Shown here piece by piece: positions 28,459 to 52,231 of a stretch of DNA of 64,000 nucleotides. The stretch spans positions 8,018 to 72,017 of the forward strand of contig JAFTDG010000055.1 in assembly GCA_017454325.1 (NCBI GenBank), in the 5' to 3' direction. Numbering within the stretch: the first letter of the stretch is position 1; every line of letters begins with the position of its first letter. Source of the DNA: Desulfovibrio sp. Its GTDB lineage: Bacteria; Desulfobacterota; Desulfovibrionia; Desulfovibrionales; Desulfovibrionaceae. The notes under the pieces were generated by a model, which saw nothing but the letters and a program-made list of their open reading frames with translations, searched no databases and was not told where the DNA came from. Both the position numbers and the translations under genes were made by a program.

Positions 28459-28710
28459 ATGAAGATCACCGGATTTACCCCCTCTGACATCTTTTCCTTT
28501 CCCATGTTTGAAAAGGACGCAGCTGTTTCTACCACAGCATCTCATGATGTGGTCAATCTTCAGTCTCTGAACATGATAGATATGGATGATACTGAAGCCA
28601 ATGCACTGCTAAATGAAACTATTGGCATAATTAGTCAGGACCACTTTGCAGCTCTCTCCGTCCACGGGGGATTAACAGAAAGCCGTGTTGCCGAACTCTT
28701 GAGCCTTTGA
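28459..28710 (+). CDS. small acidic hypothetical protein (83 aa)
   Basis: ATG follows AAAGGA. It sits behind the sigma-54-like promoter. No family recognised. Confidence 0.45.
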   Translation: MKITGFTPSDIFSFPMFEKDAAVSTTASHDVVNLQSLNMIDMDDTEANALLNETIGIISQDHFAALSVHGGLTESRVAELLSL

Positions 28711-28770
28711 CAATACCTCATCTTCCGCAGCCTATAACCTATTACTATTTCAAGACCTGCGTACTTTGTA

Positions 28771-28800
28771 AACACAAGGTATTCAGGCCTTGTTGTTTTC
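28771..28800 (+). terminator. weak rho-independent-type terminator
   Basis: ACAAGG-N8-CCTTGT stem followed by TGTTTTC, 60 nt after the 83-aa ORF. Confidence 0.3.
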
Positions 28801-28985
28801 TGCAATTTTCTATAAAATTTCTTAATAGTATATGTGGCTAGCCTGCCGTATTGACAATATGCTCTAACAGTTGCGATATGGTGCTTGCCAGAGCGGCCTC
28901 TTTCAAGTAAATTAAAACTTTATGTTGTTTCGCTGTGAACAAATCAATCCAGCAACAATGGGTCATATACTATTGAGGATGAGGC

Positions 28986-30293
28986 ATGAAGAATACCCTT
29001 CCCTATCCGACAAATCAGGCTACTGCCCCCAAACACGCCGAAGATACCTGCACTTCCAGCTTCAATCGGCATCGCTCTAAGCTTGCCTTTGACCGCCTAG
29101 TTGAAATGGGTGCTAAGATGGGGATGGAAAATCCCCTTTTTCTCTGTCATGAACGTGCTGCCAAGGCTACGACGCTCATTGGAGGCAGAGAATATCTCAA
29201 TTTTTCAACATATGATTACCTTGATATCAATGCACATCCAGAAATCACCGACGTTGTAACTAAAGCGGCAGCCTTGTATGGTACATCAGCTGGTGCCAGC
29301 CGCCTCGTCGGCGGTGAACGCCCCCCACACCGCGAACTAGAGCACGCCCTCGCAGATTTTTATGGGGTGGAAGACTGTATCGTCTACGTAAGTGGTCATG
29401 CCACCAATGTCTCTACATTGGGTTTCCTGTACGGTCCCCGTGACGCTATTTTCCACGACGGACTGGCACATAATTCACTGGTACAAGGGGCAAGGCTTTC
29501 AGGCGCTGCACGTTTTTCTTACACACATAATGATTGTGAAGCTCTTGAATTACTTCTCAAGACAAGGCGAGCAGAATATAAACGCGCAATCATAGTAACT
29601 GAAGGGCTTTTTAGTATGGATGGCAACATCCCAGATCTGCCCCGCATCATAGAACTGAAAAAAAAGTATGATTGCATGCTTCTAGTAGATGAAGCCCACT
29701 CACTGGGAGTTCTCGGCAAAACTGGTCGTGGTGCGCATGAATATTTCGATATTGATCCCACTGAAGTAGACATGTGGATGAGCACACTCTCCAAGTCTAT
29801 GTGCGGTTGCGGTGGTTTTATAGCTGGCCGGCACGATCTTATTGAATTCCTGAAATATGGTTCCCCTGGTTTTGTTTTTAGCGTAGGCATGCCGCCCATT
29901 GTAGCCGTAGCTTGCCGAAAGGCACTAGAAATACTAATACGTGAGCCTGAACGTGTGCATAAATTACAGAAAATATCACAATTTTTTGTACATTACGCCT
30001 CAGAACTCGGGTTGGATACCGGTTCTGCCCAGGGATATGCCATAGTGCCTATCATGATTGGTGATGCCATGGTTGCAGGTTTTTTGGCCAATGCACTGAT
30101 AAAACGCAATATCTATGTGATGCCAATCACATTTCCAGCCGTAAAAGAAGGCACAGATCGCCTACGTTTCTTCCTTTCTGCTTCGCATACGGAAGAGCAT
30201 ATTCGTAAAGCTCTGGATGCAGTAAAAGAAGAGCTGCCCATAGCATGGGAAAATGTGAAAAGATATATGCGTGAGCATGCCAATGAGCAGTAA
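28986..30293 (+). CDS. PLP-dependent alpha-oxoamine synthase (serine palmitoyltransferase / 8-amino-7-oxononanoate synthase family)
   Basis: YLNFSTYDYL, SRLVGGE, HNSLVQG, LLVDEAHSLG and the PLP-lysine motif STLSKS. An N-terminal extension of about 55 aa containing ENPLF resembles bacterial Spt. Confidence 0.85.
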   Translation: MKNTLPYPTNQATAPKHAEDTCTSSFNRHRSKLAFDRLVEMGAKMGMENPLFLCHERAAKATTLIGGREYLNFSTYDYLDINAHPEITDVVTKAAALYGTSAGASRLVGGERPPHRELEHALADFYGVEDCIVYVSGHATNVSTLGFLYGPRDAIFHDGLAHNSLVQGARLSGAARFSYTHNDCEALELLLKTRRAEYKRAIIVTEGLFSMDGNIPDLPRIIELKKKYDCMLLVDEAHSLGVLGKTGRGAHEYFDIDPTEVDMWMSTLSKSMCGCGGFIAGRHDLIEFLKYGSPGFVFSVGMPPIVAVACRKALEILIREPERVHKLQKISQFFVHYASELGLDTGSAQGYAIVPIMIGDAMVAGFLANALIKRNIYVMPITFPAVKEGTDRLRFFLSASHTEEHIRKALDAVKEELPIAWENVKRYMREHANEQ

Positions 30294-31581
30294 CGAGGCG
30301 CCAGCAGTTGCCTATGTACTGCTCTGGTTTCCACTTTCTTCAGAAACATTTATTTTCCGCGAAGTTGTGCAGCTTATGGCTGCGGGTCTGCCCATACGCG
30401 TCTACTCAATGTATGGAGAGCGCGTCGTTGGATGCAGCAAGGAAATGCGAGCATACCCTGGCTATGTGCAACGCATGGGTGTGAAAGCCATAGGACAAAT
30501 TTTCTGTGCGTTTTTCAAATTCCTGCGTAGTGCGCCGCGTAAAGTTATATGGCTTCTACGCCGGGGTTTTTTCCATCGCATGCGCAATCTTGAATCGCTG
30601 GGAGAAAATCTCTGGTGCTTTATGGCCGGTTTTTTACTGGCAGAATTGTGTATCCGCGACGGCATAAAGCTCATCCACGCCCCGTGGGCAAACGGACCGA
30701 CTACAGCAGCATGGGTTGCTTCACATTTAACAAACATTCCTTATGCTTTCACTGGACGGGCTGGCGACATATATCCTGAAGACGGGTTACTTCACGAAAA
30801 ATCAACAGATGCACTATTCATCCGCACCAATAACCACGCCAATGTTGACTGGCTGCGTCGTTTTTGCCCTGCTGGCCAAGAGACGAAAATTCATACCGTT
30901 TATAATAGCCTGACCTTCAATCCAAGTGGCTCATGTGCTATTGCTATGCGCCCCCCTTACCGTCTGTTGGCCGTAGGACGCTTTGCCCGCACCAAGGGTT
31001 TTCCTGATCTCTTAACGGCCATAGCCCGCCTTGTTCGGGAAAATGTGCCCGTGAGCCTCACACTTGTCGGGGATGGCCGCTGGCGTCGCAAACTTACCAA
31101 GATGCGTGACCGTTTAGGCCTCAAGGATATTGTTAACATGCCTGGATTCATTCCGCACGACCAGATATGTAATTATATGCTCGACCATGACATGCTTATA
31201 ATGCCAAGCGTAGTGCATGCAAATGGAGACAGGGATGGCATCCCCAATGTAATCATGGAAGCGCTCTCGCATGGCATGCCCGTTATTGCTACTGACGTAT
31301 GCGGTATTGCTGAAGTAATCCATAATGAAGAGACAGGCCTGCTAGTACCACAGCGTAACCCTCGTACTCTGGCTGATGCCATCCGCAAAATGCTTGCCAA
31401 TAGGGAGCAAGCACTGCATATGGCTGAAACGGGGAGAAAACTGGTAGCAGAAATGTTTGATAGTAAGCGTAATATTGCAAAACTGTTGCAACTATACACT
31501 AATGAATGTGCACGCTGCTGGCATGCTGAACCACAAAAAGCCGCCAGAACAGACGGAGCTGCAGCTGAAGGCCATGCATGA
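30271..31581 (+). CDS. GT4-family (group 1) glycosyltransferase, WcaL-like
   Basis: N-terminal VAYVLLWFPLSSETFIFREV. C-terminal GT-B motif DGIPNVIMEALSHGMPVIATDVCGIAEVI..EETG. It overlaps the preceding gene. Confidence 0.85.
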   Translation: MSMPMSSNEAPAVAYVLLWFPLSSETFIFREVVQLMAAGLPIRVYSMYGERVVGCSKEMRAYPGYVQRMGVKAIGQIFCAFFKFLRSAPRKVIWLLRRGFFHRMRNLESLGENLWCFMAGFLLAELCIRDGIKLIHAPWANGPTTAAWVASHLTNIPYAFTGRAGDIYPEDGLLHEKSTDALFIRTNNHANVDWLRRFCPAGQETKIHTVYNSLTFNPSGSCAIAMRPPYRLLAVGRFARTKGFPDLLTAIARLVRENVPVSLTLVGDGRWRRKLTKMRDRLGLKDIVNMPGFIPHDQICNYMLDHDMLIMPSVVHANGDRDGIPNVIMEALSHGMPVIATDVCGIAEVIHNEETGLLVPQRNPRTLADAIRKMLANREQALHMAETGRKLVAEMFDSKRNIAKLLQLYTNECARCWHAEPQKAARTDGAAAEGHA

Positions 31582-32591
31582 ATCACCGCCGGGTAGTATA
31601 TCTCGTCGTAAGTCTTGATGTCGAAGAAGAAGGACTTTTTGGAGGAAACTACGCCCGTCGCAACTATACAACGACCAATACGGTTGCGCTTGAACATCTT
31701 GTGCCACTGTGTCGCATTGGGGTTCGGCCCACACTATTCTGTGCATACAGTGTGCTGACGGATTCCTCCTCGCGTGACAGGCTTGCCCGCTTGTGTGAAG
31801 ATCATGGGGTAGAGCTTGGAGCACACTTGCATCATTGGAACACGCCCCCATTATCCCTGCATGGAAACGATTCTTCCCTACCAGACATAACAACAGAGGT
31901 TCCTGCTGCAGGAGTACACCCTACCCTTTTGGCTGAAAAGCTGTTTACCCTTATGAAAGCAGGGCAAAGCATACAGGGCACGCAGATGACTTCCTTCCGT
32001 ATGGGACGCTGGGATGCCCAACATTCCTTATGGCCATTATTGGCACAGGCCGGAATATTGGTAGATGCCTCTGTCCGTCCCTTGCACAGTGGCAGCACAG
32101 CTTCGGCCGGTCCTGACCACTTTGATGCCCCCAATACACCTTACTGGATCCCGACACCAAAAGGTAATCTCTTTGAAGTACCGCTGACTGTAACGCCATT
32201 GTTTCAGAAATTGCCCGCCCTTTTACGCCGTATCCCTGCTAAAGCAGGGATACAAATACGTGCCAGTTTACGACACTGGGGTGTAATGGCACTACTACCT
32301 GTGTATCACCCTCTATGGGCCATGAAATTTGTTACGTCACTGTATCTAGCGCGCGGTGGTCAAGTGCTTTCACTCACTTGGCATTCTTCCGAAATGATGC
32401 CTGGCTGCACACCGCATCTACCCGACAATGACGCAGTACAGTGCCTTCTGCGTAAGATTGACGACTGGCTTGAATGGTTACATACACACTACACGATACG
32501 TTGTCTGACCATGAGTGAGCTGATGAAAGAACTTGGGCCTACGTCACCAACATTTCAAGGCATTGGTGACTGGACCAGCATAAACATCTAG
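31578..32591 (+). CDS. polysaccharide deacetylase-like (WalW/CE4-like) protein
   Basis: LVVSLDVEEEGLF and GAHLHHWNTPP resemble the Asp and His metal-binding motifs of deacetylase-fold proteins. ATGA overlap with the upstream GT stop. Confidence 0.5.
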   Translation: MNHRRVVYLVVSLDVEEEGLFGGNYARRNYTTTNTVALEHLVPLCRIGVRPTLFCAYSVLTDSSSRDRLARLCEDHGVELGAHLHHWNTPPLSLHGNDSSLPDITTEVPAAGVHPTLLAEKLFTLMKAGQSIQGTQMTSFRMGRWDAQHSLWPLLAQAGILVDASVRPLHSGSTASAGPDHFDAPNTPYWIPTPKGNLFEVPLTVTPLFQKLPALLRRIPAKAGIQIRASLRHWGVMALLPVYHPLWAMKFVTSLYLARGGQVLSLTWHSSEMMPGCTPHLPDNDAVQCLLRKIDDWLEWLHTHYTIRCLTMSELMKELGPTSPTFQGIGDWTSINI

Positions 32592-32717
32592 CATAACTTT
32601 AGGACCAACCATAATATGGTGACAGCTCAACATCCAGACATGTTTTTCTTTTAAGCAGAAGATATGCCATCCAAACAATATAGCTAGGTATTATCAGTTT
32701 TGTCACGGAGTCTTGCC

Positions 32718-34043
32718 ATGTTGAAAACAACATTTTCGGGCAAACATCCCATCTTTTCGTCTGGATTACCCCATGTTGCCTATGTCCTTCTATGGTATCC
32801 CCTGTTCACACAACCCTTTATATTTCGCGAAGTTGAAGGCCTCAAGAATTTGCTGCCCCTTTCCGTATACAGTTTGTATGGATATAATCTGCGTCACTGT
32901 TCCACTGAAATGCGTGCGGCAGCAAATGAAACCCACACCTTCGGTATACGAACGCTGATACCTGTATTGGCAGAGTGCTTTCACTTTCTCGCGTTGCAAC
33001 CATTACGTTTCATGCGACTGCTGAAACATACACTTTTTTATCACTGGCACAGTTGGGAAATGTTGGGAGAAAACCTCTGGGCCTTCTTCATTGGCCTATA
33101 CCTAGGCCGTCTTTTTCAAGAAGCTGGCATTGACATGATATATGCGCCATGGCCCCGAGGTACGGCTACTGCAGCATGGGTAGCATCGCAAATTTCTGGT
33201 ATCCCCTTTGCCACAGCAGCACGTGGTGATAATTTAGAACCGGCAGATCCGGACCTTGGTGCCAAACTGACAGCTGCCAGTTTTATACGAGCCAATAATG
33301 CAGCAGACAAGCAGCGTATTGAGCAGTTCGACAAAGGTCAGGCCAAGGGGAAGGTGGAACTCATTTATAACAGCCTGACTTTACCTCCAGACACATTCAG
33401 AGAACCATCGCAACCAATACCGCAGCTCATGCCGCGTCCAGTGCAAATTCTAGCACTGGGCCGATTTGATGTTACCAAAGGTTTTGACATACTCATTCAG
33501 GCATGTGCAATCCTGCGTAACAAGGGGCTTGACTTCAGACTCACTTTGGCTGGCGGAGGAGGTACCGTTATGGGACTGGGACGCATGGAGGCACAAATTC
33601 TGAAACTCCGCAGAGAGTTACAGCTAGAGAATCTTGTGCATTTGCCAGGACTTGTCTCCCATAACGAGCTCCCCAACATGTTGCATGCGCACGATATCTT
33701 TGCCGCTCCCTGTATTGTTCACTCTTCAGGGCGTCGCGACGGCATTCCCAATACTGTCATTGAAGCCCTAGCATACGGCCTACCTGTGGTGAGTACCACG
33801 GTCAATGCTCTTCCTGAGGTTGTACGCAATAATGAAACCGGATTAGCTGTGCCTCCGGGGGATCCATCAGCTCTCGCTGATGCCCTTTTACGTCTAGCTG
33901 ACGACGCCCCCTTGGCAGCTCGACTGGCCCGCAACGGAAAAGACTTGGCACTAAAAATGTTTGATCCTGATCGTAACAACCAGCAGTTAGCAGATATATT
34001 CATAAGGTATTACACACAGCAGGAGAGTACATGTGCGGCATAG
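32718..34043 (+). CDS. GT4-family (group 1) glycosyltransferase, paralogue of 30271-31581
   Basis: VAYVLLWYPLFTQPFIFREV at the N-terminus. DGIPNTVIEALAYGLPVVSTTVNALPEVV.NNETG at the C-terminus. ATG 32718 follows GGAG (the track start at 32700 is a TTG). Confidence 0.85.
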   Translation: MLKTTFSGKHPIFSSGLPHVAYVLLWYPLFTQPFIFREVEGLKNLLPLSVYSLYGYNLRHCSTEMRAAANETHTFGIRTLIPVLAECFHFLALQPLRFMRLLKHTLFYHWHSWEMLGENLWAFFIGLYLGRLFQEAGIDMIYAPWPRGTATAAWVASQISGIPFATAARGDNLEPADPDLGAKLTAASFIRANNAADKQRIEQFDKGQAKGKVELIYNSLTLPPDTFREPSQPIPQLMPRPVQILALGRFDVTKGFDILIQACAILRNKGLDFRLTLAGGGGTVMGLGRMEAQILKLRRELQLENLVHLPGLVSHNELPNMLHAHDIFAAPCIVHSSGRRDGIPNTVIEALAYGLPVVSTTVNALPEVVRNNETGLAVPPGDPSALADALLRLADDAPLAARLARNGKDLALKMFDPDRNNQQLADIFIRYYTQQESTCAA

Positions 34044-35947
34044 CAGGCATTTGCCGTCTAGACAACACCCCCCTTACACCTAGTTCCACCCGCTGGGTGA
34101 TAGCTATGACAGACCGTATGGTCCACCGTGGACCAGATGGGCAAGGGGTCTGGACACATGGTCCTGTAAGCCTTGGTCATCGGCGACTTTCCATCATTGA
34201 CTTATCGGGCGGTAGTCAGCCAATGCATAGTCATGATGGACGATTAACCGTCGTATTTAACGGTGAAATCTATAATTTCCCTGAACTCAGGAAAGAACTC
34301 ATTGCCGCAGGTCACCGTTTTAGAACACAGTCAGATACAGAAGTTCTTCTTGAGAGCTATCGTCACTGGGGAACGGATTGTCTATCCCACTTTGACGGAA
34401 TGTTTGCCTTCGCCCTTTGGGACGCTACACACCATCGACTATTTTGTGCACGTGATCGTTTTGGAAAAAAACCTTTTTTTTATACAGTACAACACGGTCA
34501 GCTGTATTTCGCCTCGGAGCTTTCGGCACTGGAACAAGTTAAGGAGCTTCAGTTTACGATAAACCCTCAATCCGTCACTCGCTACCTTGCCTATGAATAT
34601 GTACCCGCCCCGCAAACCATGTATGCAGAAGTGTGCAACCTGCAACCCTCGCATCTTCTCCTGCTGGAACACGGGGATATACATATTCGTCGATACTGGG
34701 ATATGCCCATTCCAGACGAGCAAGATACACGAGATATAACTACACTATGCGAAGAGCTGCGCCACTTAATGACACGTGCAGTGCAAATGCGCATGATCAG
34801 TGACGTCCCGCTTGGTGTTTTTCTTTCAGGAGGTATTGATTCCACCATCATAGCCGGCCTCATGGCCACCCAGTCATCAGCCCCAATCAAGACATTTTCC
34901 ATTGGTTTTACCGAATCCGCATATGACGAATCTCGCTACGCACGTACCGCTGCCAAGACTTTTAGTACAGACCACCATGAACATGTACTCTCAGCAAAAG
35001 ACTGCGCGGATATCCTTCCCGGCATTATCAACGGTATGGATGTACCCATGGCCGACGCTTCAGTAGCGCCCACATGGTTACTTTCCAGTGTCACACGCGA
35101 GAAAGTCACCGTCGCTTTGGGCGGCGACGGTGCGGACGAACTTTGGGCAGGGTACGAACACTACATCGGTTTCAAGATTGCAGAATGGTATAATAAGCTG
35201 CCAAACAGCTTGCGCCGCCATATCATTGAACCTCTTGCGCAAATACTTCCTTCTTCTGCGGGCTATATCAATCCCCGCCTTGCCGTACAGACATTTTTAC
35301 AGGCAGCTCATGCGCCAGCTTGGCAGCGTGTGCAAAGCATGCTCACAGCTTTGACTTTAGATATGCAAAGAGAGGTCCTTTCCGCATCCTTTGTGTCACA
35401 GATTCCTGATTTTTTCTCTCCAGAAATACTCTTTGCTCCAACGCATACACAATACAAGCACTGGTTGCCCCGTGAAGCCGCTTCTCCTCTAGCGCGAGCT
35501 TTTCATGTCTATGTACGTCAGTTTTTACCAGAAGATATCCTTGTCAAGGTCGATCGGTGCTCTATGTTGCACAGCTTGGAAGTCCGCGCACCGTTTTTGG
35601 ACCGGGACGTGGCGATATTTGTTGCGCGCCTGCCAGTGCGCTACAAGTTGCACGGATTCAAGCGTAAATGGTTACTTAAGAAGGCATTTGCCGATCTGTT
35701 GCCAAATGAAATTTTGCATCGTAACAAACGTGGCTTCCAAATCCCCGTAGCACAATGGCTCCGAGGTCGTATGCGTCCACTTATGGAAGACATGCTTAAT
35801 GTTGACACGTTACGAAAACAAGGAATTTTTAACCCTCAGGCTGTACGAAAACTAATGGATCTACACATTTCTGGCCTGACAGACCTACGTAAGCCTCTAT
35901 GGACATTACTGGTTTTTCAACTTTGGTGGCAAGCTCACAAAGCTTGA
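34031..35947 (+). CDS. glutamine-hydrolysing asparagine synthase-family amidotransferase (AsnB-like)
   Basis: MCGIAG Ntn nucleophile, RGPD, and the SGGIDS PP-loop. It overlaps the upstream GT by 13 nt. Confidence 0.9.
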   Translation: MCGIAGICRLDNTPLTPSSTRWVIAMTDRMVHRGPDGQGVWTHGPVSLGHRRLSIIDLSGGSQPMHSHDGRLTVVFNGEIYNFPELRKELIAAGHRFRTQSDTEVLLESYRHWGTDCLSHFDGMFAFALWDATHHRLFCARDRFGKKPFFYTVQHGQLYFASELSALEQVKELQFTINPQSVTRYLAYEYVPAPQTMYAEVCNLQPSHLLLLEHGDIHIRRYWDMPIPDEQDTRDITTLCEELRHLMTRAVQMRMISDVPLGVFLSGGIDSTIIAGLMATQSSAPIKTFSIGFTESAYDESRYARTAAKTFSTDHHEHVLSAKDCADILPGIINGMDVPMADASVAPTWLLSSVTREKVTVALGGDGADELWAGYEHYIGFKIAEWYNKLPNSLRRHIIEPLAQILPSSAGYINPRLAVQTFLQAAHAPAWQRVQSMLTALTLDMQREVLSASFVSQIPDFFSPEILFAPTHTQYKHWLPREAASPLARAFHVYVRQFLPEDILVKVDRCSMLHSLEVRAPFLDRDVAIFVARLPVRYKLHGFKRKWLLKKAFADLLPNEILHRNKRGFQIPVAQWLRGRMRPLMEDMLNVDTLRKQGIFNPQAVRKLMDLHISGLTDLRKPLWTLLVFQLWWQAHKA

Positions 35948-36055
35948 GCTCATACACATTAAGTTAGTTCTAAAAGAACTCCCTTGCCAGCTCTGGAAAA
36001 ATGCGTATATCTGGCATAAACACATCATGCACCACTCTCTTTCTTGGGAGCACAT

Positions 36056-36925
36056 ATGACAAGCCAGTTAAAAACAGTTCTCCTTCTTGCCCTGTTATCC
36101 GGCATCATCATTATTTTGGGCGGCATGCTGGGCGGACAATCCGGTGTAATCTTTGCTTTCGGCCTTGCCCTACTGATGAATCTGGGCAGCTACTGGTATT
36201 CTGACAAAATCGTACTCTCTATGTACCATGCACGAGAACTTGCACCTGAAGAAGCCCCCCAACTCCACCAGATTGTAGCAGAGCTTGCCCGTAATGCAGG
36301 CATCCCCAAACCGAGAGTCTGCGTGGTGCCTGAAGAAACTCCTAATGCTTTTGCCACCGGACGAAATCCAGAAAACGCAGTTGTTGCCGTAACTGAGGGG
36401 ATCTTACGTCTGCTTTCCTTTGAAGAACTTCGCGGAGTATTGGCACACGAAATGGGACACATTGCCAACCGCGATATTCTTATCCAGACTATTGCTGGTG
36501 TTATGGCCTCCGCGATAGTCACTTTGGCAAATATTTTTCAGTTTACTGCTATTTTTGGGGGACACCGTGATGGCGAAGGCGGTAGCGGCAACCCTTTTGC
36601 CGCACTAATACTAGCCTTATTGGCTCCCATGGCAGCAGGGATTATTCAGATGGCCATCTCGCGTTCAAGAGAATTCTTGGCTGATGAAACCGGTGCACAA
36701 ATTAGTGGACAGCCGCTCGCTTTGGCCAGCGCCTTGCACAAACTGGCAGTACAAAGCGGTCAAATTCCCATGCATTCAGGTAATCCCAGTACGGAACAGA
36801 TGTTTATAGTCACCCCCATGTATGCAATGGGCGGAATGGCAAGTCTTTTCAGTACACATCCACCCATTGAAGAGCGTATCCGCCGTCTTCAATACATGGC
36901 GACCCGTTTTCATCAAGGACATTGA
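36056..36925 (+). CDS. htpX: membrane zinc metalloprotease HtpX
   Basis: HEMGH, NAFATG and EFLADE motifs. ATG 36056 lies 5 nt after GGGAG. Confidence 0.9.
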   Translation: MTSQLKTVLLLALLSGIIIILGGMLGGQSGVIFAFGLALLMNLGSYWYSDKIVLSMYHARELAPEEAPQLHQIVAELARNAGIPKPRVCVVPEETPNAFATGRNPENAVVAVTEGILRLLSFEELRGVLAHEMGHIANRDILIQTIAGVMASAIVTLANIFQFTAIFGGHRDGEGGSGNPFAALILALLAPMAAGIIQMAISRSREFLADETGAQISGQPLALASALHKLAVQSGQIPMHSGNPSTEQMFIVTPMYAMGGMASLFSTHPPIEERIRRLQYMATRFHQGH

Positions 36926-36935
36926 GGCGAATAGC

Positions 36936-37334
36936 ATGATAATATTGCGAATTTTTTCCTCCTTAATGGCCCTAGTATTTCTTAATGCCTGTGCTACTCA
37001 AAGTAAAGATACAGAGCTCCTTCCTACTCCTGAAGAGTGCCCTTTTATTTATGTAGCTGCACCAGGCAATTATATTATTGACATTGCCAGCGGAGCTGAA
37101 GTTATTCTTGATCCCGCTGTACAGGATTTCGAATTGTTTTGCGATGCCGATGTGGCCCGTAAAGCCGTAAACAGAGGGATACATAGTGGAGATCTACCAG
37201 AAGGAGATTGGCGTATTTATCGTCTTGATGGTCAAATGGAAGATTTAGGACAATGTATAGGCGACGGAAGATTCATGCTCAGCCGCATGGGACAAATTGT
37301 AGACTGGGTAACCGACCAGCCTTCCGTAGAATAA
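36936..37334 (+). CDS. putative lipoprotein (132 aa)
   Basis: Signal peptide with lipobox LVFLNAC at the N-terminus. ATG 36936. Confidence 0.55.
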   Translation: MIILRIFSSLMALVFLNACATQSKDTELLPTPEECPFIYVAAPGNYIIDIASGAEVILDPAVQDFELFCDADVARKAVNRGIHSGDLPEGDWRIYRLDGQMEDLGQCIGDGRFMLSRMGQIVDWVTDQPSVE

Positions 37335-37373
37335 CCCTGATATCTTCCCACTTTCCAGTGACGGCGAAGTGTG

Positions 37374-38561
37374 CTAGGAACGATAGTCTGCGTTCAGGCT
37401 TACATACTCATGCCCTAAATCTGATGCCTGAAAATCATAGCTGCCCTTTCCTGCTCCCAAAGTAATATCTATCTGGATATCCTTGTCTTTGAGCAGCATG
37501 CCTAAAGCTTCTTCCTTATCATCGTTGACAGGTTGGCCCTTGTGGAAACGTTCAATCCCACAAAGGCTAAGGCTGACTTCGTCTGGATTGAAGTGAGCTC
37601 CGCTGTAGCCTACTGCGGTAACAATACGACCCCAGTTGGCATCACCACCATAGATGGCCGTCTTGACCAGTTGAGAATGTCCCACAGAGCGCGCCACAAG
37701 TCTGGCATCAGCGTCGTCCATAGCTCCATGTACATGGATATGGATTACCTTTCCCGCCCCTTCTCCATCCATGACCAACATATGTGACACCATAGACAGA
37801 AGTTCCGTCAAAGTGTTCTCAAACGCTTCCAATGCATCCCTTTTGCTTACCGCCACGCCAGAGGCTCCATTGGCAAGTCCTAGTATGGTATCATTGGTGG
37901 AAGTATCTCCATCCACACTTACACGGTTAAAGGTAGCCTCAACAGCACGTCCAAACATGGCTTGCCACTGTTCACGGCCTATTGCAGCGTCAGTAAGGAC
38001 AACACAAAGCATAGTGGCCATGTTAGGACAAATCATACCAGCGCCTTTTGCCATAACCGTCAACCGTACCCAACCTCCATCCAAACTTACTTCACGCATT
38101 GCAAACTTAGGGAAAGCGTCCGTAGTCATGAAGGCCCTCGTGAAGCCCTCGGCATCGCGCGTACCAAGGCTCTCGATCAGTGCAGGCATGGCCGCAGCCC
38201 ACAGATCCATTTTAAGCTGCGCACCAATAACTCCAGTAGAAATGGGTAATACAGCTTCTGGTGCTAAGCCTAATCGCTCTGCCACCATACGTTGTGTCGT
38301 CCTGCAATTTACAACCCCCTGTTCTCCTGTGCATGCGTTAGCCTGACCGGAATTGGCAATCACAGCCTGTGCAGTTCCATAATTACGTAAAATCTCTCTG
38401 CAAATATGTACTGGAGCAGCACAGAACACGTTTTGCGTAAACAAGGCTGCAAGTACAGCCGGGCAATCCGACACTATTAAACCTAAATCATCCCGGCCTA
38501 GCTTCTTGAATCCTGCCTCCGCCGCTCCAGCACGGAAGCCTTTGGGTAAATCGTCAAACAT
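37374..38561 (-). CDS. argJ: bifunctional ornithine acetyltransferase / N-acetylglutamate synthase
   Basis: ATMLCVVLTDA autoproteolysis site, KGAGMI.PNM, and GGDANWGRI. Confidence 0.95.
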   Translation of the reverse strand: MFDDLPKGFRAGAAEAGFKKLGRDDLGLIVSDCPAVLAALFTQNVFCAAPVHICREILRNYGTAQAVIANSGQANACTGEQGVVNCRTTQRMVAERLGLAPEAVLPISTGVIGAQLKMDLWAAAMPALIESLGTRDAEGFTRAFMTTDAFPKFAMREVSLDGGWVRLTVMAKGAGMICPNMATMLCVVLTDAAIGREQWQAMFGRAVEATFNRVSVDGDTSTNDTILGLANGASGVAVSKRDALEAFENTLTELLSMVSHMLVMDGEGAGKVIHIHVHGAMDDADARLVARSVGHSQLVKTAIYGGDANWGRIVTAVGYSGAHFNPDEVSLSLCGIERFHKGQPVNDDKEEALGMLLKDKDIQIDITLGAGKGSYDFQASDLGHEYVSLNADYRS

Positions 38562-38608
38562 ATGTTGCTCTCCCTAGCATGTAGCGGAAGTGGTTTTCTT
38601 CTAATACC

Positions 38609-38636
38609 AGAGATGCGCCGTTGTCGGCGCATCTCT
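38609..38636 (-). terminator. perfect 12-bp hairpin (AGAGATGCGCCG-TTGT-CGGCGCATCTCT) downstream of fusA
   Basis: Read directly from the sequence, 80 nt after the fusA stop and before argJ. No clear U-tract on the minus strand. Confidence 0.45.
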
Positions 38637-38715
38637 ACTTTATACTCTTTCAAAAAAGAATGCGAAAAAAACGGAATCCTTCTCAAAAGATATTCGTGTT
38701 GCTCCAATAAAAATT

Positions 38716-40794
38716 TTAGCTTCGCGACTTTTGAATTTCATCAGAAATGGCTTGGGGTACACGTTCATAGTGATCAAACTGCATGGTGAAAGTAGCCCGT
38801 CCCTGGGTACGAGAACGCAAATCAGTCGCATAACCAAACATAGAGGCCAAAGGTACTTGCGCTCGTACGCTTTGCACTCCACCCGCCCGAGCATCCATAT
38901 TCTGTACACGGCCACGACGCCCATTAAGGTCACCCATTACGTCACCCAGGTATTCTTCAGGCGTGACCACTTCCACATCCATAATGGGCTCCAGTAGTAC
39001 GGGACTTGCCTTTTTCATAGCGTCCTTGATAGCCATGGAGCCTGCTACATAAAACGCCTGTTCAGAAGAGTCCACCTCGTGGTACGAACCAAAGACCAGA
39101 TTGACCTTAACGTCAACCACTGGGAATCCCGCTAAAACGCCGGACTTAAGGGCATCTTGGATGCCTTTATCTACCGCAGGAATATACTCCTTGGGAATGA
39201 CCCCGCCGGTGATGGAATTGATAAATTCATATCCCTTGGCCGGATTGGGTTCCACCTCAATGACTACATGTCCGTACTGGCCACGGCCACCAGACTGTTT
39301 TGCGTACTTAAGGTCAGACTTGGAAGGCTTGGATATAGTTTCGCGATAAGCCACCTGCGGCTTGCCCACATTGGCATTGACGTTAAATTCACGAGTAAGG
39401 CGATCAACAATAATCTCCAAATGCAATTCGCCCATACCGGCGATGAGCGTCTGATTAGTCTCTTCATCGCCTTTTACACGAAAAGAGGGATCTTCCTTCG
39501 CCAGCTTATTAAGTGCCGCAGATAGTGCGTCACGGTCAGCTTTTGTCTTGGGTTCAATGGCAACTTCTATGACTGGCTCGGGAATATTGAGAGATTCAAG
39601 GATAACCTCACGTTTTTCATCACAAAGAGTATCCCCAGTTGAGGCATTCTTCAATCCAACCAATGCCACAATATCACCTGCACCAGCCCATTTGACATCT
39701 TCACGTTTATTAGCATGCATTTTGAGAATACGGCCGATACGTTCACGTTTTGTAGTATTGGCGTTGTAAACTGTCATGCCTGATTCCAGATAGCCAGAAT
39801 AAATGCGGAAGAACGACAGGTGACCAATGAACGGGTCAGAGAAAAGCTTGAAAACCAAGCCGGCCAAAGGCTCTTTATCATCACAATGGCACTCAACAAT
39901 CTCATCTTCATTGCCCGGCACATGGCCAGGCGTGGGTGGAATATCCACAGGGGAAGGAAGATAGTCTACCACGGCATCAAGCAGAGGTTGTACGCCCATG
40001 TTACGAAAAGCAGAACCCAGCAGTACAGGCACGATATTACGAGCAATGGTAGCCTTGCGTATGCAGGAGATAATCTCTTCTTCCGTGAGGGTTTCTCCAC
40101 CAAGATATTTCTCCAGCAGGGCTTCATCTTCCTCTGCGACCGCTTCCAAGAGCTCGTGATGTTTTTCATCAAATAGCGCTTTCATTTCGGAGGGAACATC
40201 CTCCACAGAGAATTGAGCGCCTTTTGTGGACTTATCAAACCGGATAGCATGGCCACGTACCAAGTCAACCACACCCTCAAATTTATCTTCACTTCCTATA
40301 GGAAGCTGTAAAGGTACGGCCTTGGCGCCAAGACGTTCGTGAATCATATTCACACAGCGAAAGAAGTCTGCCCCGATACGGTCCATCTTGTTGACAAAAC
40401 AGACTCTTGGGACATGATAGCGGTCAGCCTGACGCCAAACTGTTTCTGACTGCGGTTCCACGCCTGCCACGGCATCAAACACACACACTGCACCATCCAA
40501 AACACGCAGAGAACGTTCTACCTCAATGGTAAAATCCACATGTCCGGGAGTATCAATGATGTTGATACGACAGTCTTTCCAAAAACAGGTGGTCGCGGCT
40601 GATGTAATGGTGATACCGCGCTCTTGTTCCTGTTCCATCCAGTCCATGGTAGATTCGCCGTCATGCGTTTCGCCAATTTTGTGATTAACGCCGGTATAAA
40701 AGAGAATGCGCTCAGTGGTGGTGGTCTTGCCAGCGTCAATATGGGCCATAATGCCAATATTACGCTGCTTGTCTACGGGGGTGGTGCGAGACAC
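38716..40794 (-). CDS. fusA: translation elongation factor G
   Basis: [22 protein letters not shown] and NKMD. Full-length EF-G. GTG start follows GGGAGGA. Located downstream of rpsL-rpsG. Confidence 0.97.
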
Positions 40795-40878
40795 GGTAGT
40801 TCCTCCCTCAAAACGGTCCCTCAGCTTAAAATCTGGGGCATGCCGTTCCGACTGCGGATGCTTTTGTGGTGTAAAGGC

Positions 40879-40906
40879 GACGCCGCTTCCTAGCGGACGC
40901 GGCGTC
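40879..40906 (-). other. GC-rich hairpin in the 142-nt rpsG-fusA spacer
   Basis: GACGCCGC...GCGGCGTC outer stem with an alternative inner hairpin CCGCT-TCCT-AGCGG. Read directly from the sequence. Confidence 0.35.
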
Positions 40907-40936
40907 GTGTATCAAGCTGACAAAGGAAGGTTCGCA

Positions 40937-41407
40937 TTACCAGCGGTAGTGGGCGAAAGCCTTGTTAGCATCGGCCATGCGGTGTGTATCTTCACGCTTC
41001 TTTACCGCACCACCGCGCCCGTTATAGGCATCCAGCAGTTCAGCGGAGAGCTTAGCGGTCATGCCTTTTTCACCGCGGGAACGGGCATAGTTGATAAGCC
41101 AACGGATGGAAAGGGAAACCTGTCGCTCCGGCCGCACTTCCATGGGCACCTGATAGGTTGCTCCACCCACACGGCGGGCCTTGACTTCCATATGTGGTTT
41201 CACATTGTCCAAAGCCTTTTCAAAGGCACGCATCGGATCTTCGCCGGTCTTTTCAGCTAGTGCTTCCAGAGAACTATAAAAAATTTTTTCGGCTGCGCCT
41301 TTTTTGCCATTGTACATAAGCCGATTCACAAATTTAGTGACAAGCCGGCTGGAATACATAGGATCGGGCAGCACTTCCCTCTTGGGGACAGGACCTTTAC
41401 GTGGCAT
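40937..41407 (-). CDS. rpsG: 30S ribosomal protein S7
   Basis: [16 protein letters not shown]... is full-length S7. ATG 41407 follows AAGGAG. The track ORF is extended by 12 codons. Confidence 0.97.
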
Positions 41408-41506
41408 GGGGTTACTCCTTACATAAGGAAACGGCGTCACCAACCCCGCATCATCAGCGCACTAAAGCAGCCGGATGATACATGGCGCACGCCAATGATA
41501 AAAAAG

Positions 41507-41878
41507 TTATTTGGGACGTTTTGCACCGTATTTAGAACGGCTTTTACGACGATCTGTCACACCAGAAGTATCAAGTGTACCACGGACAATGTGATAACGA
41601 ACACCGGGCAGGTCTTTCACGCGACCTCCACGGATAATCACCACAGAGTGCTCCTGCAGATTATGGCCTTCGCCAGGGATGTAGGCCGTAACTTCGATGC
41701 CATTTGTTAAACGCACACGAGCGACCTTACGCAAAGCAGAATTCGGCTTTTTGGGAGTTGTGGTATACACGCGTGTACAAACGCCCCGACGCTGCGGGCA
41801 AGCCTGCAGAGCTGGGGTTTTTTTGCGTTTCACCACGGCCTTCCGCTCAATGCGGATAAGCTGATTAATCGTGGGCAT
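41507..41878 (-). CDS. rpsL: 30S ribosomal protein S12
   Basis: MPTINQLIR...[10 protein letters not shown]...[15 protein letters not shown] 41878 follows GGAGGAAG. Confidence 0.97.
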
Positions 41879-41991
41879 GAATGCTTCCTCCATAGAATTA
41901 GTTTGCACATGGGTACCTTCATGACAAACTTTTGAGCGGTAATCCATAGCCTGTCCTGGCTCCTCTGTCAATAGAGGGCACAGAATACTAG

Positions 41992-44658
41992 CTATTCTTC
42001 TTCCAGCGCTTCAGCAAAACGTACGCGCAAGGCATACATTTTAGTCTTAGTATCCAACAGTTTTTCTGCTCGCTCACGCTCACGCTGCACTACATCTGCT
42101 GGTGCACGGCTAATAAAGCCTTCATTGTGCAGTTTCTTATTGGCACTCACCAAATCCTTTTCAAGCTTGTCCAGTTCCTTGTCCAGCCGAGAGAGCTCTC
42201 CCTTAAGATCCACCGTACCTTTGAGAGGTACAATGACCTGGCATCCTTCCACCACTGCCGAAGCGGAGGCCTTAGGGGTTTGCACTTCCATGCCAATGGT
42301 CAGTGTTTCAAGCCGAGCCAAGGTAACTAGACAAGGGCGATTCTGTTCCAAAAGCTCAGCTTGAGCGGCATCAACTGGATGAAGAAGCAAAGTAGCCTTG
42401 TGGGCCGGGCTGATGCCTAACTCAGCCTTTATTGTGCGCACAGCCACAATAACGCCTTGGATAAACTCCATCTTTGAGGCCTCGCCCGGACGTTCACACT
42501 CGGGGCGGAAAGAAGGATAAGGTTCCTTTGCAATATCCGTCACGCCTGTCCCAGATTGCACCGGCAAAGCTGCCCAAATTTCTGCAGTAACAAATGGCAC
42601 CATTGGATGCAGCAGTATGAGCAGTTCGCGCAAGCTGAGCCACAACACATACTGTGCAGTAGACTTGCGTGCGACATCATCACTTTGCATATCTGGCTTG
42701 ATGAGTTCCAGATACCAATCACAAAACTCACTCCATAGAAATTTATAGCCCAGCTGTGCAGCGTCATTAAAACGGTATTCTTCCAATGCCTTGTCCATCT
42801 CATGCTTGACAACTTCAAGCCGATGCAACAGCCATTGATGGTGCAGTCCCAGTACTGCTGCTGGTGCCACAGGGGAAGGTGCCTGCTCTGGCAGATTCAT
42901 AAGGGCGAAGCGAGCCGCATTCCAGAGTTTATTTATAAAATGGCGATAGCCCTCAATGCGTTCTTCGGAAAGTCGGATATCGCGCCCCATGGCGGCAAAA
43001 GCCGTGAGCGTGAATCGCAGAGCATCGCAACCATATTTGGCGATCATTTCAAGGGGATTAATGACATTGCCCGTCGATTTAGACATCTTGCGGCCCGTAG
43101 CGTCACGTACCAGTGCGTGCAGGTACACGTGGGCAAAAGGAGGCTTGCCCATAAAGTGCAGCCCCATCATCATCATGCGGGCCACCCAAAAAAAGAGTAT
43201 GTCGAACCCCGTCACCAGCACGCTTGTGGGGAACCAACGATGGAGATCCTTGGTATCATCAGGCCAGCCCATAGTAGAGAATGGCCAAAGGGCTGAAGAG
43301 AACCATGTGTCCAGGACGTCCTCTTCCTGTTTAAGATTATGGCCGCCACACTTGGGACACGAAACAGGAGTTTCCTCGGCAACAATAAGTTCGCCGCAAT
43401 CTTGGCAGGTCCAAGCTGGGATACGATGTCCCCACCAGATCTGACGGCTGATGCACCAGTCACGGATATTGTCCAACCAGTGATAATACGTCTTGAGCCA
43501 GGCTTCAGGAAATATCTGTGTAAGAGAGGGCACAGCATCGCGCGCAGCAGGAGCCAGTTTTGTAGAAGCAACAAACCATTGAGTGGAAACATGCGGCTCA
43601 ACCACGGTATGACATCGGTAGCAATGCCCGACTGCATGATCCAGCTCTTCAACACCTTCCAAAAGGCCAACTGCTTCCATATCAGCAACAATCTTTCTTC
43701 GGCAGTCCTCTTTGGAAAGGCCGGCGTATGGCCCGGACTCCGGCTTCATGATGCCGTTTTCATCAATGACCTGAATGAAGGCCAAACTGTGCTTCTGGCC
43801 AAGCGACCAGTCGTTATGGTCATGGCAAGGAGTAACCTTCAGAGCTCCGGTACCAAACTCACGATCCACATAACTATCTGCAATGATAGGAATTTCACGA
43901 CCCAAGATTGGCACAACAACAGTCTTCCCCACAAGATTGGCATAACGTTCGTCTTCTGGATGTACGCAGACGGCAGTATCACCGGGAATGGTTTCAGGCC
44001 TAGTGGTAGCCACAGTGATATAACCTGAGCCGTCGGTCAATGCATAACGAACTTTCCACAAATTGCCCCGATGTTGTTCATGCTCCACTTCGTCATCGGC
44101 TAGTGCTGTATGGCAGCGTGAGCACCAATTGATAATATAGTCTCCCTTATAGATAAGACCTTCTTTGTAGAGGCGTACAAAAACCTTGCGTACTGCAGCA
44201 GAAAGGCCCTCATCCATGGTGAATCGCAGTCGCGTCCAGTCCACGGAAGCCCCAAGGGCGGATATCTGGTCGAGGATACGGTGCCCATAATCCTCACGCC
44301 AAGCCCAAACCCGCTCTATAAATTTCTCACGGCCAAGGTCACGGCGAGTTTTTCCTTCCTTGGCAAGAGCACGCTCCACTACGTTTTGCGTGGCAATTCC
44401 CGCATGGTCCGTACCTGGTACCCAGAGCACATTCTTGCCTTTTTGCCTGGCGTGACGACATAGTACATCAATAAGGGTCAAGTTAAGTGCGTGACCAATG
44501 TGCAGCGCGCCTGTAACATTCGGTGGCGGAATGACAATGGAGTACGCTTCACCCTCGTCGTCCGGATCTGGCGAAAAAGTCCTGTCTTCCTCCCAGTGTT
44601 TACGCCACCGGGCTTCAACATTCTGGGGTTCATAGCCCTTAGGTAAGGTATCGGCCAT
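41992..44658 (-). CDS. valS: valine--tRNA ligase
   Basis: [13 protein letters not shown] (HIGH), KMSKSTGN (KMSKS), and a C-terminal coiled coil. ATG 44658 follows GGAGAAAG. Confidence 0.97.
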
Positions 44659-44693
44659 CTTGCTTTCTCCATAAAAGACGGCGATAGTATGGC

Positions 44694-46025
44694 ATGATCT
44701 TCGCCAAGCAGCCAATTTTTATTCTTTGGGATGAGTCCCATATCTGGGGACTCATGGCTTGGCGCGCCGTACGCGCACTGGGGCTGCCCTGCCGTCTAGT
44801 TAAGGGGAATGAAATAGCCGAAGGTACGCTTTTACGCAAGCCGCAAAACACGCGCTCGGGTTGTACACATACAGGTATGTTGCTGGTACCTGGTGGCAAT
44901 GCCCGCCTCAAGGCATACGCTCTTGGTTCTGCTGGTCGCGAAGCCATTCGCTACTGGCTCGCAGCTGGTGGGAACTATCTCGGCTTCTGTGGTGGTGCCG
45001 GTCTCGCCCTGACACAGACTCAACCGGACGAAGGCCTGAACATTTGCCCCTGGACACGAGCAAACTACCCCCAACGCCTGAATCATCTAATATCAGGCCA
45101 TGTACAGTCACATGTTACTCTCGGTCACGCATTCTCTCCAAAATCTCCTGTACCTGCAGATGAACTACTCTCTTTACCCGTATGGTGGCCGGGACAATTT
45201 GCCCAACAAAAATGCCCAAATGTACAGGTGCTTGGGGTTTGCCACAGACCAGACAAAGATTTTTGGATTGCCGATTTACCCATGCAACAACTGCCCAGCG
45301 GTACTATTGAACATTGGCGAACCCTGTATGGCGTCAACCTTTCAGCAGATTTTCTGGAAGGGCAACCTCTTGTGATCACTGGAACTTATGGTTCTGGTCG
45401 TTATGTCTTGAGCTATTCACACCTGGAAACTCCGCACAGTCCAATGGCCAACACATGGCTGGCCCAAATACTCGCTAATATGACACAACTTGTCCCCAAA
45501 AACGACCAAGTGCCCCTGTGGCAACTACGACACCCACATATATCATGGCCCGATTACCGCGAACGTACTCTACTGATGGATGCCCTTCGGCATATGCGTG
45601 ACCTCCTTGACCTCGCGGTGGAACACCATCTTTTCTTTGCACGTACCCACTGGCTGTGGGGCTGGCGCACAAGTCTGCCCGGCGCGAGCTGTAACCATTT
45701 GCACGCTGCACTATGTTCTGTGCTGGCGCTAAAACCCACATCCGCAGCGCGAATCTACTGGAGAGAGATGGCGACACGATTTGCCGCACTGGAACACATT
45801 TTTATGTCAGGTGCAGAAGAATATTTTTTAGCCTGCCGTTTAGCAGAAACACTTAGCCCCTCATTGCCCGATACTGTGGAAAAACGCTGGTTGGATCATC
45901 AACGCGAATCCTTATTTGGCCATCCCATGTACGGTGGCGGCATTCTATCAGAACTGCTTTCCATTATTGAGGAAATCATCTACCTCTCACAAGATAATGC
46001 CTTGACAGATACAGATGTTCTTTGA
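44694..46025 (+). CDS. hypothetical protein with an N-terminal class-I glutamine-amidotransferase-like (BPL_N-like) fold and a helical C-terminal half
   Basis: PIFILWDES...LLVPGGNA...GGNYLGFCGGAGLAL resembles the strand-loop pattern of the BPL_N/GATase1-like family. This is pattern recall only and was not searched. Confidence 0.4.
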   Translation: MIFAKQPIFILWDESHIWGLMAWRAVRALGLPCRLVKGNEIAEGTLLRKPQNTRSGCTHTGMLLVPGGNARLKAYALGSAGREAIRYWLAAGGNYLGFCGGAGLALTQTQPDEGLNICPWTRANYPQRLNHLISGHVQSHVTLGHAFSPKSPVPADELLSLPVWWPGQFAQQKCPNVQVLGVCHRPDKDFWIADLPMQQLPSGTIEHWRTLYGVNLSADFLEGQPLVITGTYGSGRYVLSYSHLETPHSPMANTWLAQILANMTQLVPKNDQVPLWQLRHPHISWPDYRERTLLMDALRHMRDLLDLAVEHHLFFARTHWLWGWRTSLPGASCNHLHAALCSVLALKPTSAARIYWREMATRFAALEHIFMSGAEEYFLACRLAETLSPSLPDTVEKRWLDHQRESLFGHPMYGGGILSELLSIIEEIIYLSQDNALTDTDVL

Positions 46026-46121
46026 CTTTTATTCATACGCATCATATTCATACATTTCATGACGCAGTATTATTAATATATAGCGCTATAATATATATAA
46101 TAATTCACTGTTTAACTTAAA

Positions 46122-46138
46122 CATTACATTATGTAATG
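46122..46138. repeat. 17-bp perfect palindrome CATTACAT-T-ATGTAATG
   Basis: Read directly from the sequence. Confidence 0.7.
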
Positions 46139-46162
46139 ACAATATAAAATATACTTTGATTA

Positions 46163-46186
46163 TTATAAAATTATTTATAAAATTAT
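46163..46186. repeat. perfect tandem duplication of the 12-mer TTATAAAATTAT
   Basis: Read directly from the sequence (46163-46174 equals 46175-46186). Confidence 0.7.
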
Positions 46187-46260
46187 AAATAAGTTATTAC
46201 TTATAATGATTTCATTACACACATACTCAACAATATCAACTACAAATATTTACATATACT

Positions 46261-46293
46261 GTGATGCAACAAAGTTATAAATTACTGCATCAC
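46261..46293. repeat. inverted repeat GTGATGCA-N17-TGCATCAC
   Basis: Read directly from the sequence. It lies just upstream of the putative -35 element. Confidence 0.65.
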
Positions 46294-46306
46294 TGAATAA
46301 TGTTGC

Positions 46307-46335
46307 TAGACAAATAACACGATATCATTTATAAT
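46307..46335 (+). promoter_or_regulatory. putative sigma-70-type promoter TAGACA-N17-TATAAT
   Basis: Perfect -10 hexamer at 46330-46335 and a 4/6 -35 match at 46307-46312 with a 17-nt spacer. It lies about 44 nt upstream of ATG 46379. Confidence 0.4.
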
Positions 46336-46378
46336 AAAGAATATATTTATTGATTATTCTTGCACCACAGGTCAAAAA

Positions 46379-49780: not shown

Positions 49781-49829
49781 CACGTTAGGCATTTCACACA
49801 GTCTGCCAAAGCATTATAAAGGTTTTTCC

Positions 49830-52222: not shown

Positions 52223-52231
52223 GGCCCTGGA

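Follow-up and report, generated by a model that had tools for sequence, protein, structure and literature searches.

The operon and the carrier and export genes

The window, a 64,000-nucleotide stretch of a Desulfovibrio sp. genome (assembly GCA_017454325.1, contig JAFTDG010000055.1, positions 8,018 to 72,017), carries at 28986-35947 an operon of five intact, tightly coupled open reading frames (ORFs), all on the + strand. The first is assigned to the alpha-oxoamine synthases (AOS); it is followed by two GT4 glycosyltransferase genes (GT4a and GT4b) flanking a third gene with a predicted deacetylase fold, and by a gene for an AsnB-type amidotransferase (Table 1). The five co-directional genes were found as an earlier note on this DNA had described them. 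The assembly to which the window belongs comprises 2.55 Mb and is 99% complete.

The junctions reported earlier were recovered, the first and the third depending on the start codons chosen for GT4a and GT4b. AOS and GT4a overlap by 23 nt from GTG 30271, by 17 from ATG 30277 and by 11 from ATG 30283, and all three candidate starts overlap the AOS stop codon. GT4a and the third gene share an ATGA overlap (31578-31581), the third gene is separated from GT4b by 126 nt (ATG 32718) or 108 nt (TTG 32700), and GT4b overlaps the AsnB-like gene by 13 nt. A survey of the gene neighbourhood, proposed beforehand in the earlier note, revealed the operon's gene order in 12 related genomes or contigs, with protein identities of 58-85%; the operon is therefore not a chance run of ORFs. 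The complete order AOS-GT4a-CE4-GT4b-AsnB is present in the window's genome and in six other genomes or contigs, while shorter forms occur as AOS-GT4a-CE4-AsnB (genome G114) and AOS-CE4-GT4b-AsnB (G041 and G096). The AOS homologues with identities of 70-97% are without exception named as Desulfovibrio or Desulfovibrionaceae, and the relatives that share the operon are gut and rumen Desulfovibrionaceae.

Both glycosyltransferases matched Glycos_transf_1 in Pfam/NCBIfam scans (GT4a, 124 bits; GT4b, 110 bits), in agreement with the GT4 assignment made earlier. They share 40% identity, and GT4a additionally scored 147 bits against an EpsE-like model, under its cut-off. The third gene matched no Pfam or NCBIfam family, Polysacc_deac_1 included, and a PDB sequence search with it returned no match, so its placement is by fold search alone. 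An AlphaFold2 model, built from an alignment of 31 homologues, reached a pLDDT of 93.8, and its top Foldseek matches (E 3e-9 to 1e-6, TM-scores 0.48-0.63) were the putative polysaccharide deacetylases 3rxz, 3qbu and 3s6o, ArnD (8t0j, listed as Salmonella Typhimurium ArnD) and PuuE (3cl6). ArnD acts on a lipid-linked sugar. As modelled, the third protein folds as a CE4-type deacetylase, which bears out the CE4-like label that it had been given. Residues D14, E16-18, H83, H85, R141, D163 and H269 are invariant in the 31 homologues, with D14, H83 and H85 as candidates for a metal site. A language-model atlas names the neighbours of this protein deacetylases, which was treated as a lead only. A paralogue of this CE4-like gene at 41% identity in the same genome (G000:C114:3944-4888, locus L151) carries a single in-frame TAA and is possibly a pseudogene.

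The AsnB-like protein retains MCGIAG with Cys2 and SGGIDS, and matches GATase_7 (171 bits) and Asn_synthase (335 bits). It is accordingly classed, by motif and profile, in the class II (Ntn) glutamine amidotransferase/asparagine synthetase B family, and the claim of an intact amidotransferase stands, the glutaminase nucleophile and the PP-loop both being kept. Against TIGR03108, the XrtA/PEP-CTERM amidotransferase model, it scored 613 bits, under the cut-off of 817. The nearest solved structure is the hydroxyamidotransferase 7ylz, an enzyme that tailors a polyketide acid. Membership of the AsnB-like gene in a conserved htpX backbone was rejected because its orthologues elsewhere adjoin a GT4a-like gene rather than htpX. 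A 'terminal amidation domain' described on bioRxiv was likewise dropped as a parallel, being an NAD-binding domain and not an AsnB homologue.

About 10 kb downstream of the operon lies a second gene set (46379-53665) that the earlier note had missed. It encodes a ketosynthase-less acyltransferase (AT)/carrier protein, about 16 kb from the AOS, together with a TolC-like outer-membrane factor, a HlyD-type adaptor and a MOP/Wzx-type flippase. D. legallii-type contigs have the operon in divergent orientation to the gene of a 1145-aa Acyl_transf_1 protein, which is followed by OEP, HlyD-like and Polysacc_synt genes. The survey sample comprised 121 genomes of the family; eight of these encode an AOS orthologue of at least 70% identity and, without exception, the AT-carrier gene, which in six cases adjoins the AOS gene or lies within 2 kb of it. 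The same layout is found in loci L004, L049 and L050 (two further named metagenome-assembled genomes included). In G068 and G116 the order reads u443(-), valS(+) ... argJ ... htpX(-), AsnB-like(-) ... AOS(-) / AT-carrier(+), where u443 is a 443-aa BPL_N-like gene. The window's block from the AOS operon via htpX, argJ, fusA and valS to u443 is reversed relative to these two genomes. The separation of operon and carrier gene is thus explained by one inversion of ~17 kb, of which a breakpoint falls within the divergent spacer common to both.

The AT-carrier protein is the probable acyl donor for the AOS. Among its orthologues GHSLGE is conserved in all and the carrier motif RSSRxP is invariant, and the DH-type His is not conserved. 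The window's genome contains no AT domains other than those of FabD and of this protein, and no full KS-AT-DH-ER-KR-ACP synthase stands beside the AOS. When the carrier protein's C-terminal 734 residues were compared by sequence with the PDB, no match was returned.

Table 1. Coordinates of the operon, the carrier and export genes and the inverted segment in the window
Feature	Position	Strand	Remarks
AOS	28986..30293	+	435 aa; assigned to PKS-coupled SgaB/RkpG-type alpha-oxoamine synthases; Pfam Aminotran_1_2
GT4a, GT4 glycosyltransferase	30271..31581	+	start 30271, 30277 or 30283; Glycos_transf_1
Third gene, CE4-superfamily deacetylase-like	31578..32591	+	337 aa; fold match
GT4b, GT4 glycosyltransferase, GT4a paralogue	32718..34043	+	Glycos_transf_1
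AsnB-type glutamine-dependent amidotransferase	34031..35947	+	638 aa; GATase_7 + Asn_synthase
Ketosynthase-less acyltransferase/carrier/degenerate KR/DH-like protein	46379..49780	+	1133 aa; Acyl_transf_1 + PP-binding
TolC-like outer-membrane factor	49731..51293	+	Pfam OEP; syntenic with AT-carrier gene in relatives
HlyD-type periplasmic adaptor	51293..52222	+	HlyD_D23, HlyD_3; synteny in relatives
MOP/Wzx-type flippase	52232..53665	+	Polysacc_synt_3; synteny in relatives
Segment inverted relative to same-genus genomes, splitting the cluster	28711..46378	.	gene order in G068, G116

A scan for promoters and terminators gave counts close to those from shuffled sequence, and established neither. 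Upstream of the AOS promoter region, the interval 28459-28793 holds an 83-aa acidic ORF without family match and, after it and just 5' of that region, a terminator-like hairpin (28774-28793). The ORF is preceded by a weakly PilZ-like gene (E 9e-4), which is unlinked to the operon in G068 and G116. The AsnB-like gene is followed by htpX and a DVU_2496-family lipoprotein gene (36044-37334), as it is in G068, G116 and G067. The stretch from the AsnB-like gene to htpX showed no terminator-like site, and read-through is therefore possible.

Placement of the oxoamine synthase

The AOS keeps the pyridoxal phosphate (PLP) lysine K270 within STLSKS, as well as H162, D235 and H238, all invariant or nearly so in 26 relatives, and is thereby assigned to the alpha-oxoamine synthase family (PLP fold type I). 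The motifs cited in the earlier note (STLSKS, HNSLVQG and VDEAHS here; MCGIAG and SGGIDS in the AsnB-like protein) were all read in the translations. Against NCBIfam, the enzyme fell below every equivalog cut-off with a flat profile: bioF 346, Kbl 320, SPT 283, ALAS 230 and CqsA 174 bits.

An exhaustive search with the AOS over 1.8 billion cluster representatives returned one close cluster, at 82% identity. The next matches, at 42-52% identity and 364-440 bits (one two-stretch match reached 530 bits), were mostly the C-terminal domain of proteins of 1000-2800 residues. The AOS-fusion proteins that were scanned are type I polyketide synthases (PKSs), one of them reading KS-AT-DH-ER-KR-ACP-AOS, and one stand-alone relative lies directly 3' of a 2483-aa PKS. 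Identity to such PKS-terminal AOS domains, and to AOS genes immediately 3' of a one-module PKS of ~2500 aa, is 45-53% (370-440 bits). Solved BioF, Kbl, SPT and ALAS structures scored at most 235 bits against the AOS. In about 35 of 80 loci from named genomes, an ORF of ~2500 aa ends just before the AOS, in genera that include Alcaligenes, Bordetella, Burkholderia, Ralstonia, Pseudomonas and Rhizobium, and further Methylobacterium, Accumulibacter, Cocleimonas and Guyparkeria. These genera overlap the list given for SgaAB homologues by Peters et al. 2025, whose survey counts 17 Desulfovibrio clusters (PMC12134224). In that study PfSgaB of Pseudomonas fluorescens MYb115 is a proven serine palmitoyltransferase (SPT), which together with the iterative PKS PfSgaA yields C24-C28 sphinganines.

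A maximum-likelihood tree of 78 rows was computed in the 'quick' mode of IQ-TREE, with SH-aLRT as the only support measure and with outgroups labelled by NCBIfam, E. coli BioF and Kbl included. The PKS-coupled AOS form a clade apart from the BioF, Kbl and SPT-like outgroups (SH-aLRT 100). The operon-bearing AOS make up a single clade of 12 rows (SH-aLRT 100), nested in a 20-row Desulfovibrionaceae clade (SH-aLRT 99) whose other members follow a full PKS. Of 105 columns conserved at 90% or more in the PKS-coupled AOS, 100 are kept by the operon clade and five differ consistently, mostly conservatively, which speaks against a drastic shift in substrate class. The window's AOS is accordingly classed, on tree position and conserved columns, as an SgaB/RkpG-type member of the PKS-coupled clade. 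Such a placement had been set beforehand as a check, with clustering with BioF as the contrary outcome; the AOS stands apart from BioF, and no such cluster was seen.

The Spt-like character ascribed to the AOS in the earlier note is retained in part. Its closest characterised kin, PfSgaB, has SPT activity, but the enzyme falls short of all three models of canonical bacterial Spt (NF047600, 283 bits against a cut-off of 640; NF047599, 246 against 500; NF047603, 194 against 670), and its membership is instead in the PKS-coupled SgaB/RkpG clade. Five genomes with SgaB-like loci were searched for canonical Spt (NF047599), with no match above the cut-off; the sub-cut-off matches from these genomes served as labelled outgroups only.

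The predicted product and competing readings

This clade of AOS adjoins surface-glycan genes in three layouts: the gut/rumen operon, a locus of genome G034 and a Rhizobium capsule locus. The G034 locus (L019, G034:C45:62000-81999) is a second, independent combination that unites a GT4, a KS-AT-DH-MT-ER-KR-ACP synthase, an AOS of 59% identity and an SDR with GT2, CE4-like, GT4a-like, radical SAM/SPASM and GT1_3 genes. In Rhizobium lusitanum, an AOS of the same clade is flanked by Poly_export and PKS genes to one side and by SDR, sulfatase-family and Capsule_synth genes to the other. The linkage of AOS and glycan genes thus recurs with two different acyl-supplying partners, and these layouts are most simply read together with the AOS product as the lipid that either serves as the base for a glycan or is carried by one. 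Taken by itself, the G034 locus looks like a glyco-sphingoid cluster in more complete form. Three genomes (G035, G039 and G012) encode another kind of AOS, SPT-CFB-like, with a CE4-like homologue within 5-13 kb of it. The best model for this AOS (L015/L016 in G035:C10, L017 and L018) is the Bacteroidota-type Spt, at 384-413 bits and below the cut-off; near it, G035 encodes a 2432-aa synthase whose AT-carrier-KR part is 34-37% identical to the ketosynthase-less protein of the window.

From the observed gene identities, folds, phylogeny and linkage we infer the following chemical steps, substrates and order. The AT domain of the 46379-49780 protein would load an acyl unit onto its own carrier domain, where housekeeping type II enzymes would have to extend the chain because the carrier protein has no ketosynthase. 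In the AOS reaction, the acyl thioester on the carrier would then be condensed with an amino acid (L-serine being the likeliest), which would release a 2-amino-3-keto (sphingoid-type) lipid. GT4a may add a sugar, plausibly an N-acetyl-hexosamine, that the CE4-like enzyme would deacetylate before GT4b adds a second one; the AsnB-type enzyme would amidate a carboxylate, plausibly that of a uronic acid. Finally, the MOP flippase, the adaptor and the TolC-like channel would carry the product outward. In line with such a lipid, Pfam/NCBIfam scans of the nine genes of both operons revealed no priming transferase or polymerase family.

Several observations weigh against this scheme. The SgaB/RkpG label reached the AOS clade by way of AOS fused to or following a PKS. 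In G047 the operon consists of AOS-AsnB without glycosyltransferase or CE4-like gene, a GT4b-like gene being found elsewhere in that genome. The AT domain retains, in the orthologue alignment, the Arg 25 residues past GHSLGE (in all orthologues except that of G047) and xAFH. These two features usually mark malonyl rather than long-chain loading. Apart from the G047 and G035 forms, the AT-carrier orthologues have lost their KR motifs. A 3-ketosphinganine reductase and an N-acyltransferase are missing from both operons, and the ketosynthases of the genome are five stand-alone type II enzymes, with none of type I. Since GT4a-like/AsnB-like pairs also occur inside polysaccharide-type loci of AOS-less genomes, a polymer may be what the tailoring genes serve. 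As a side observation, G047 (L013, G047:C1:1-20000) has the shortest operon, and its AT-carrier protein is the only close orthologue with intact KR motifs (GGGRGIT, GQANY). Four of the five type II ketosynthases cluster on contig C38, as stand-alone genes within 16 kb (G000:C38:11776-27412); this suggests a separate type II fatty-acid-/polyketide-like cluster, which could supply unusual acyl chains.

On balance, the glycosylated, possibly amidated amino-lipid predicted in the earlier note still leads, therefore, on the kinship of the AOS, the CE4 fold, the intact AsnB-like enzyme and the recurrent linkage to glycan genes, with the polysaccharide alternative kept beside it. We assign a probability of roughly 0.5 to the proposal of a split cluster whose product is an exported amino-lipid bearing sugars, with the operon as its condensing and tailoring half. 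More tentatively, and as a possibility that we would not yet call probable, this lipid may belong to an unseen class of exported glyco-amino-lipids in gut/rumen Desulfovibrio, with a sphingoid-type base made on a stand-alone ketosynthase-less carrier, an amino-sugar/uronamide head and delivery by a MOP flippase, adaptor and TolC-like channel.

An unlikely competitor is a polyprenol-linked exopolysaccharide or capsule pathway, in which the GT4 enzymes, the deacetylase and the amidotransferase would build and modify a repeat unit flipped by the MOP protein, and the AOS and carrier would provide only an acyl-amino substituent, or a terminal lipid primer for a long polymer. Orthologues of the AsnB-like protein (51-59% identity) occur in many AOS-less genomes, always adjoining a GT4a-like gene (45-54%) and often near a MOP flippase. 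Such pairs without AOS, at 45-59% identity, were found in G010 and at least five other genomes, with GT1_3, radical SAM, MOP, GT2, GT4 and a GGDEF protein as neighbours in G010; the pairs thus form an older glycan module, which was later joined to the AOS module in the gut/rumen clade. The best model for the AsnB-like protein is that of an exopolysaccharide amidotransferase (XrtA/PEP-CTERM, 613 bits), CE4-like homologues are commoner (30 of the 121 family genomes) than AOS orthologues at 48% identity or more (24), and RkpG-type relatives reside in capsule loci. Set against a polymer are the AOS itself, always first in the operon and translationally coupled to the first tailoring gene, and export by a TolC-like channel with a HlyD-like adaptor rather than an OPX/PCP pair. 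Furthermore, no phosphoglycosyl priming transferase, Wzy polymerase or Wzc/Wza-type protein is encoded among the nine genes of the two operons, to which this search was confined.

Less probable again is a small polar product, for which the AT would load malonyl, the AsnB-type enzyme would amidate the free carboxylate and the AOS would add an amino acid, the resulting amino-ketone being glycosylated and exported. OxyD, an asparagine-synthetase homologue, is proposed to make the malonamyl starter unit of tetracycline by such an amidation. The carrier protein without ketosynthase, whose AT and carrier motifs are the only ones kept by every orthologue, would suit this chemistry, as would the malonyl-type Arg and xAFH, the hydroxyamidotransferase 7ylz as nearest solved relative, and the minimal cluster of G047, which comprises AT-carrier, AOS, AsnB-like and export genes. 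However, the AOS keeps 100 of the 105 positions conserved in long-chain PKS-coupled enzymes, the AsnB-like orthologues pair with a GT4 in loci without AT-carrier, and the MOP flippase suggests a membrane-embedded substrate.

That the AOS is the biotin enzyme BioF (or Kbl) amid incidental glycosyltransferase neighbours is highly improbable, since its top raw scores (bioF, model TIGR00858, 346 bits; then Kbl, 320) are under the cut-offs of 426 and 460, the tree separates it from both enzymes with full SH-aLRT support (100), its operon context is conserved, and the genome holds bioA, bioD and bioB together on contig C29, all above cut-offs, and a better bioF candidate on C125 (383 bits, next family just 242) beside a BioC-like gene. 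None of these bio genes is on the window's contig, and the earlier statement that no bioA, bioB or bioD lies nearby is upheld, as is the reading that the AOS is not a biotin enzyme. The likely true bioF (C125, L152:6105-8779) overlaps a 364-aa ORF without family match, and the BioC-like methyltransferase gene after it scores 180 bits, slightly under the cut-off of 185.

Significance and comparison with known systems

Enzymes of this class, and their connection with surface glycans, are already known (SgaAB; rkp and wcb). Literature searches returned no description of a ketosynthase-less carrier combined with GT4/CE4/AsnB and MOP/adaptor/TolC genes in gut Desulfovibrio, and nothing relevant for Desulfovibrio with oxoamine synthase, sphingolipid or the operon genes. 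Together, the conserved AOS, two glycosyltransferases, deacetylase-like protein and amidotransferase point to a so far unisolated amino-lipid, exported and sugar-bearing, as the probable product. In this cluster, the sphingoid pathway with a coupled PKS that was characterised in 2025 would have been rebuilt around a reduced carrier protein, with sugar tailoring and an unusual flippase/adaptor/channel exporter. It offers a concrete way towards a glycolipid specific to Desulfovibrio. The genus is common in the gut and associated with disease, its surface lipids have received little study, and sphingolipids and related amino-lipids of gut Bacteroides affect host immunity and lipid metabolism. If the prediction is true, the glyco-amino-lipid would be a candidate host-facing molecule comparable to the Bacteroides sphingolipids. 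For the rkp and wcb genes, no lipid product is known to be established; should the product of the window's cluster anchor or decorate a polysaccharide, it would also bear on which lipid these capsule genes make.

With PfSgaA/PfSgaB/SgaC, the window's AOS shares the conserved catalytic motifs and a PKS-linked clade that has Pseudomonas, Burkholderia, Bordetella and Rhizobium members. Unlike that system, the window's cluster has no full PKS, its partner being the ketosynthase-less AT-carrier protein 16 kb away, and no SgaC-like reductase; it adds two GT4 enzymes, the CE4-like and AsnB-like proteins and the TolC/adaptor/MOP set. A likeness to XrtA/PEP-CTERM loci is seen in the AsnB-like and GT4 proteins, which score best or near best against TIGR03108 and TIGR03088/TIGR04063, respectively, but all scores from the window are under the curated cut-offs.

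RkpA/RkpG of the rkp-1 region in Sinorhizobium and WcbR/WcbT of the Burkholderia capsule cluster are PKS and AOS genes within capsule loci (PMC3908369, and Kiss et al. 1997 as cited in it). They share with the window an AOS of the same clade that is physically tied to genes of surface-glycan synthesis and export. The companion genes differ, being KpsS/C-like and OPX genes in the rkp and wcb loci, and GT4, CE4-like, AsnB-like, MOP, HlyD-like and TolC-like genes in the window.

The nearest worked example of such a logic is GSL-2 of Caulobacter crescentus, a Hex-HexA-ceramide made by the AOS CcbF/Spt and the GT-4 enzymes Sgt1 and Sgt2 (PMC6445935). The Caulobacter AOS is a canonical Spt with acyl chains derived from fatty-acid synthase, unlike that of the window, and its glycosyltransferase genes are encoded outside any operon shared with it; the pathway includes no deacetylase, amidotransferase or dedicated exporter. 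Common to both would be an AOS-made sphingoid lipid decorated stepwise by two GT4 enzymes, and the hexuronic acid among the GSL-2 sugars illustrates the kind of carboxylate on which an amidotransferase could act.

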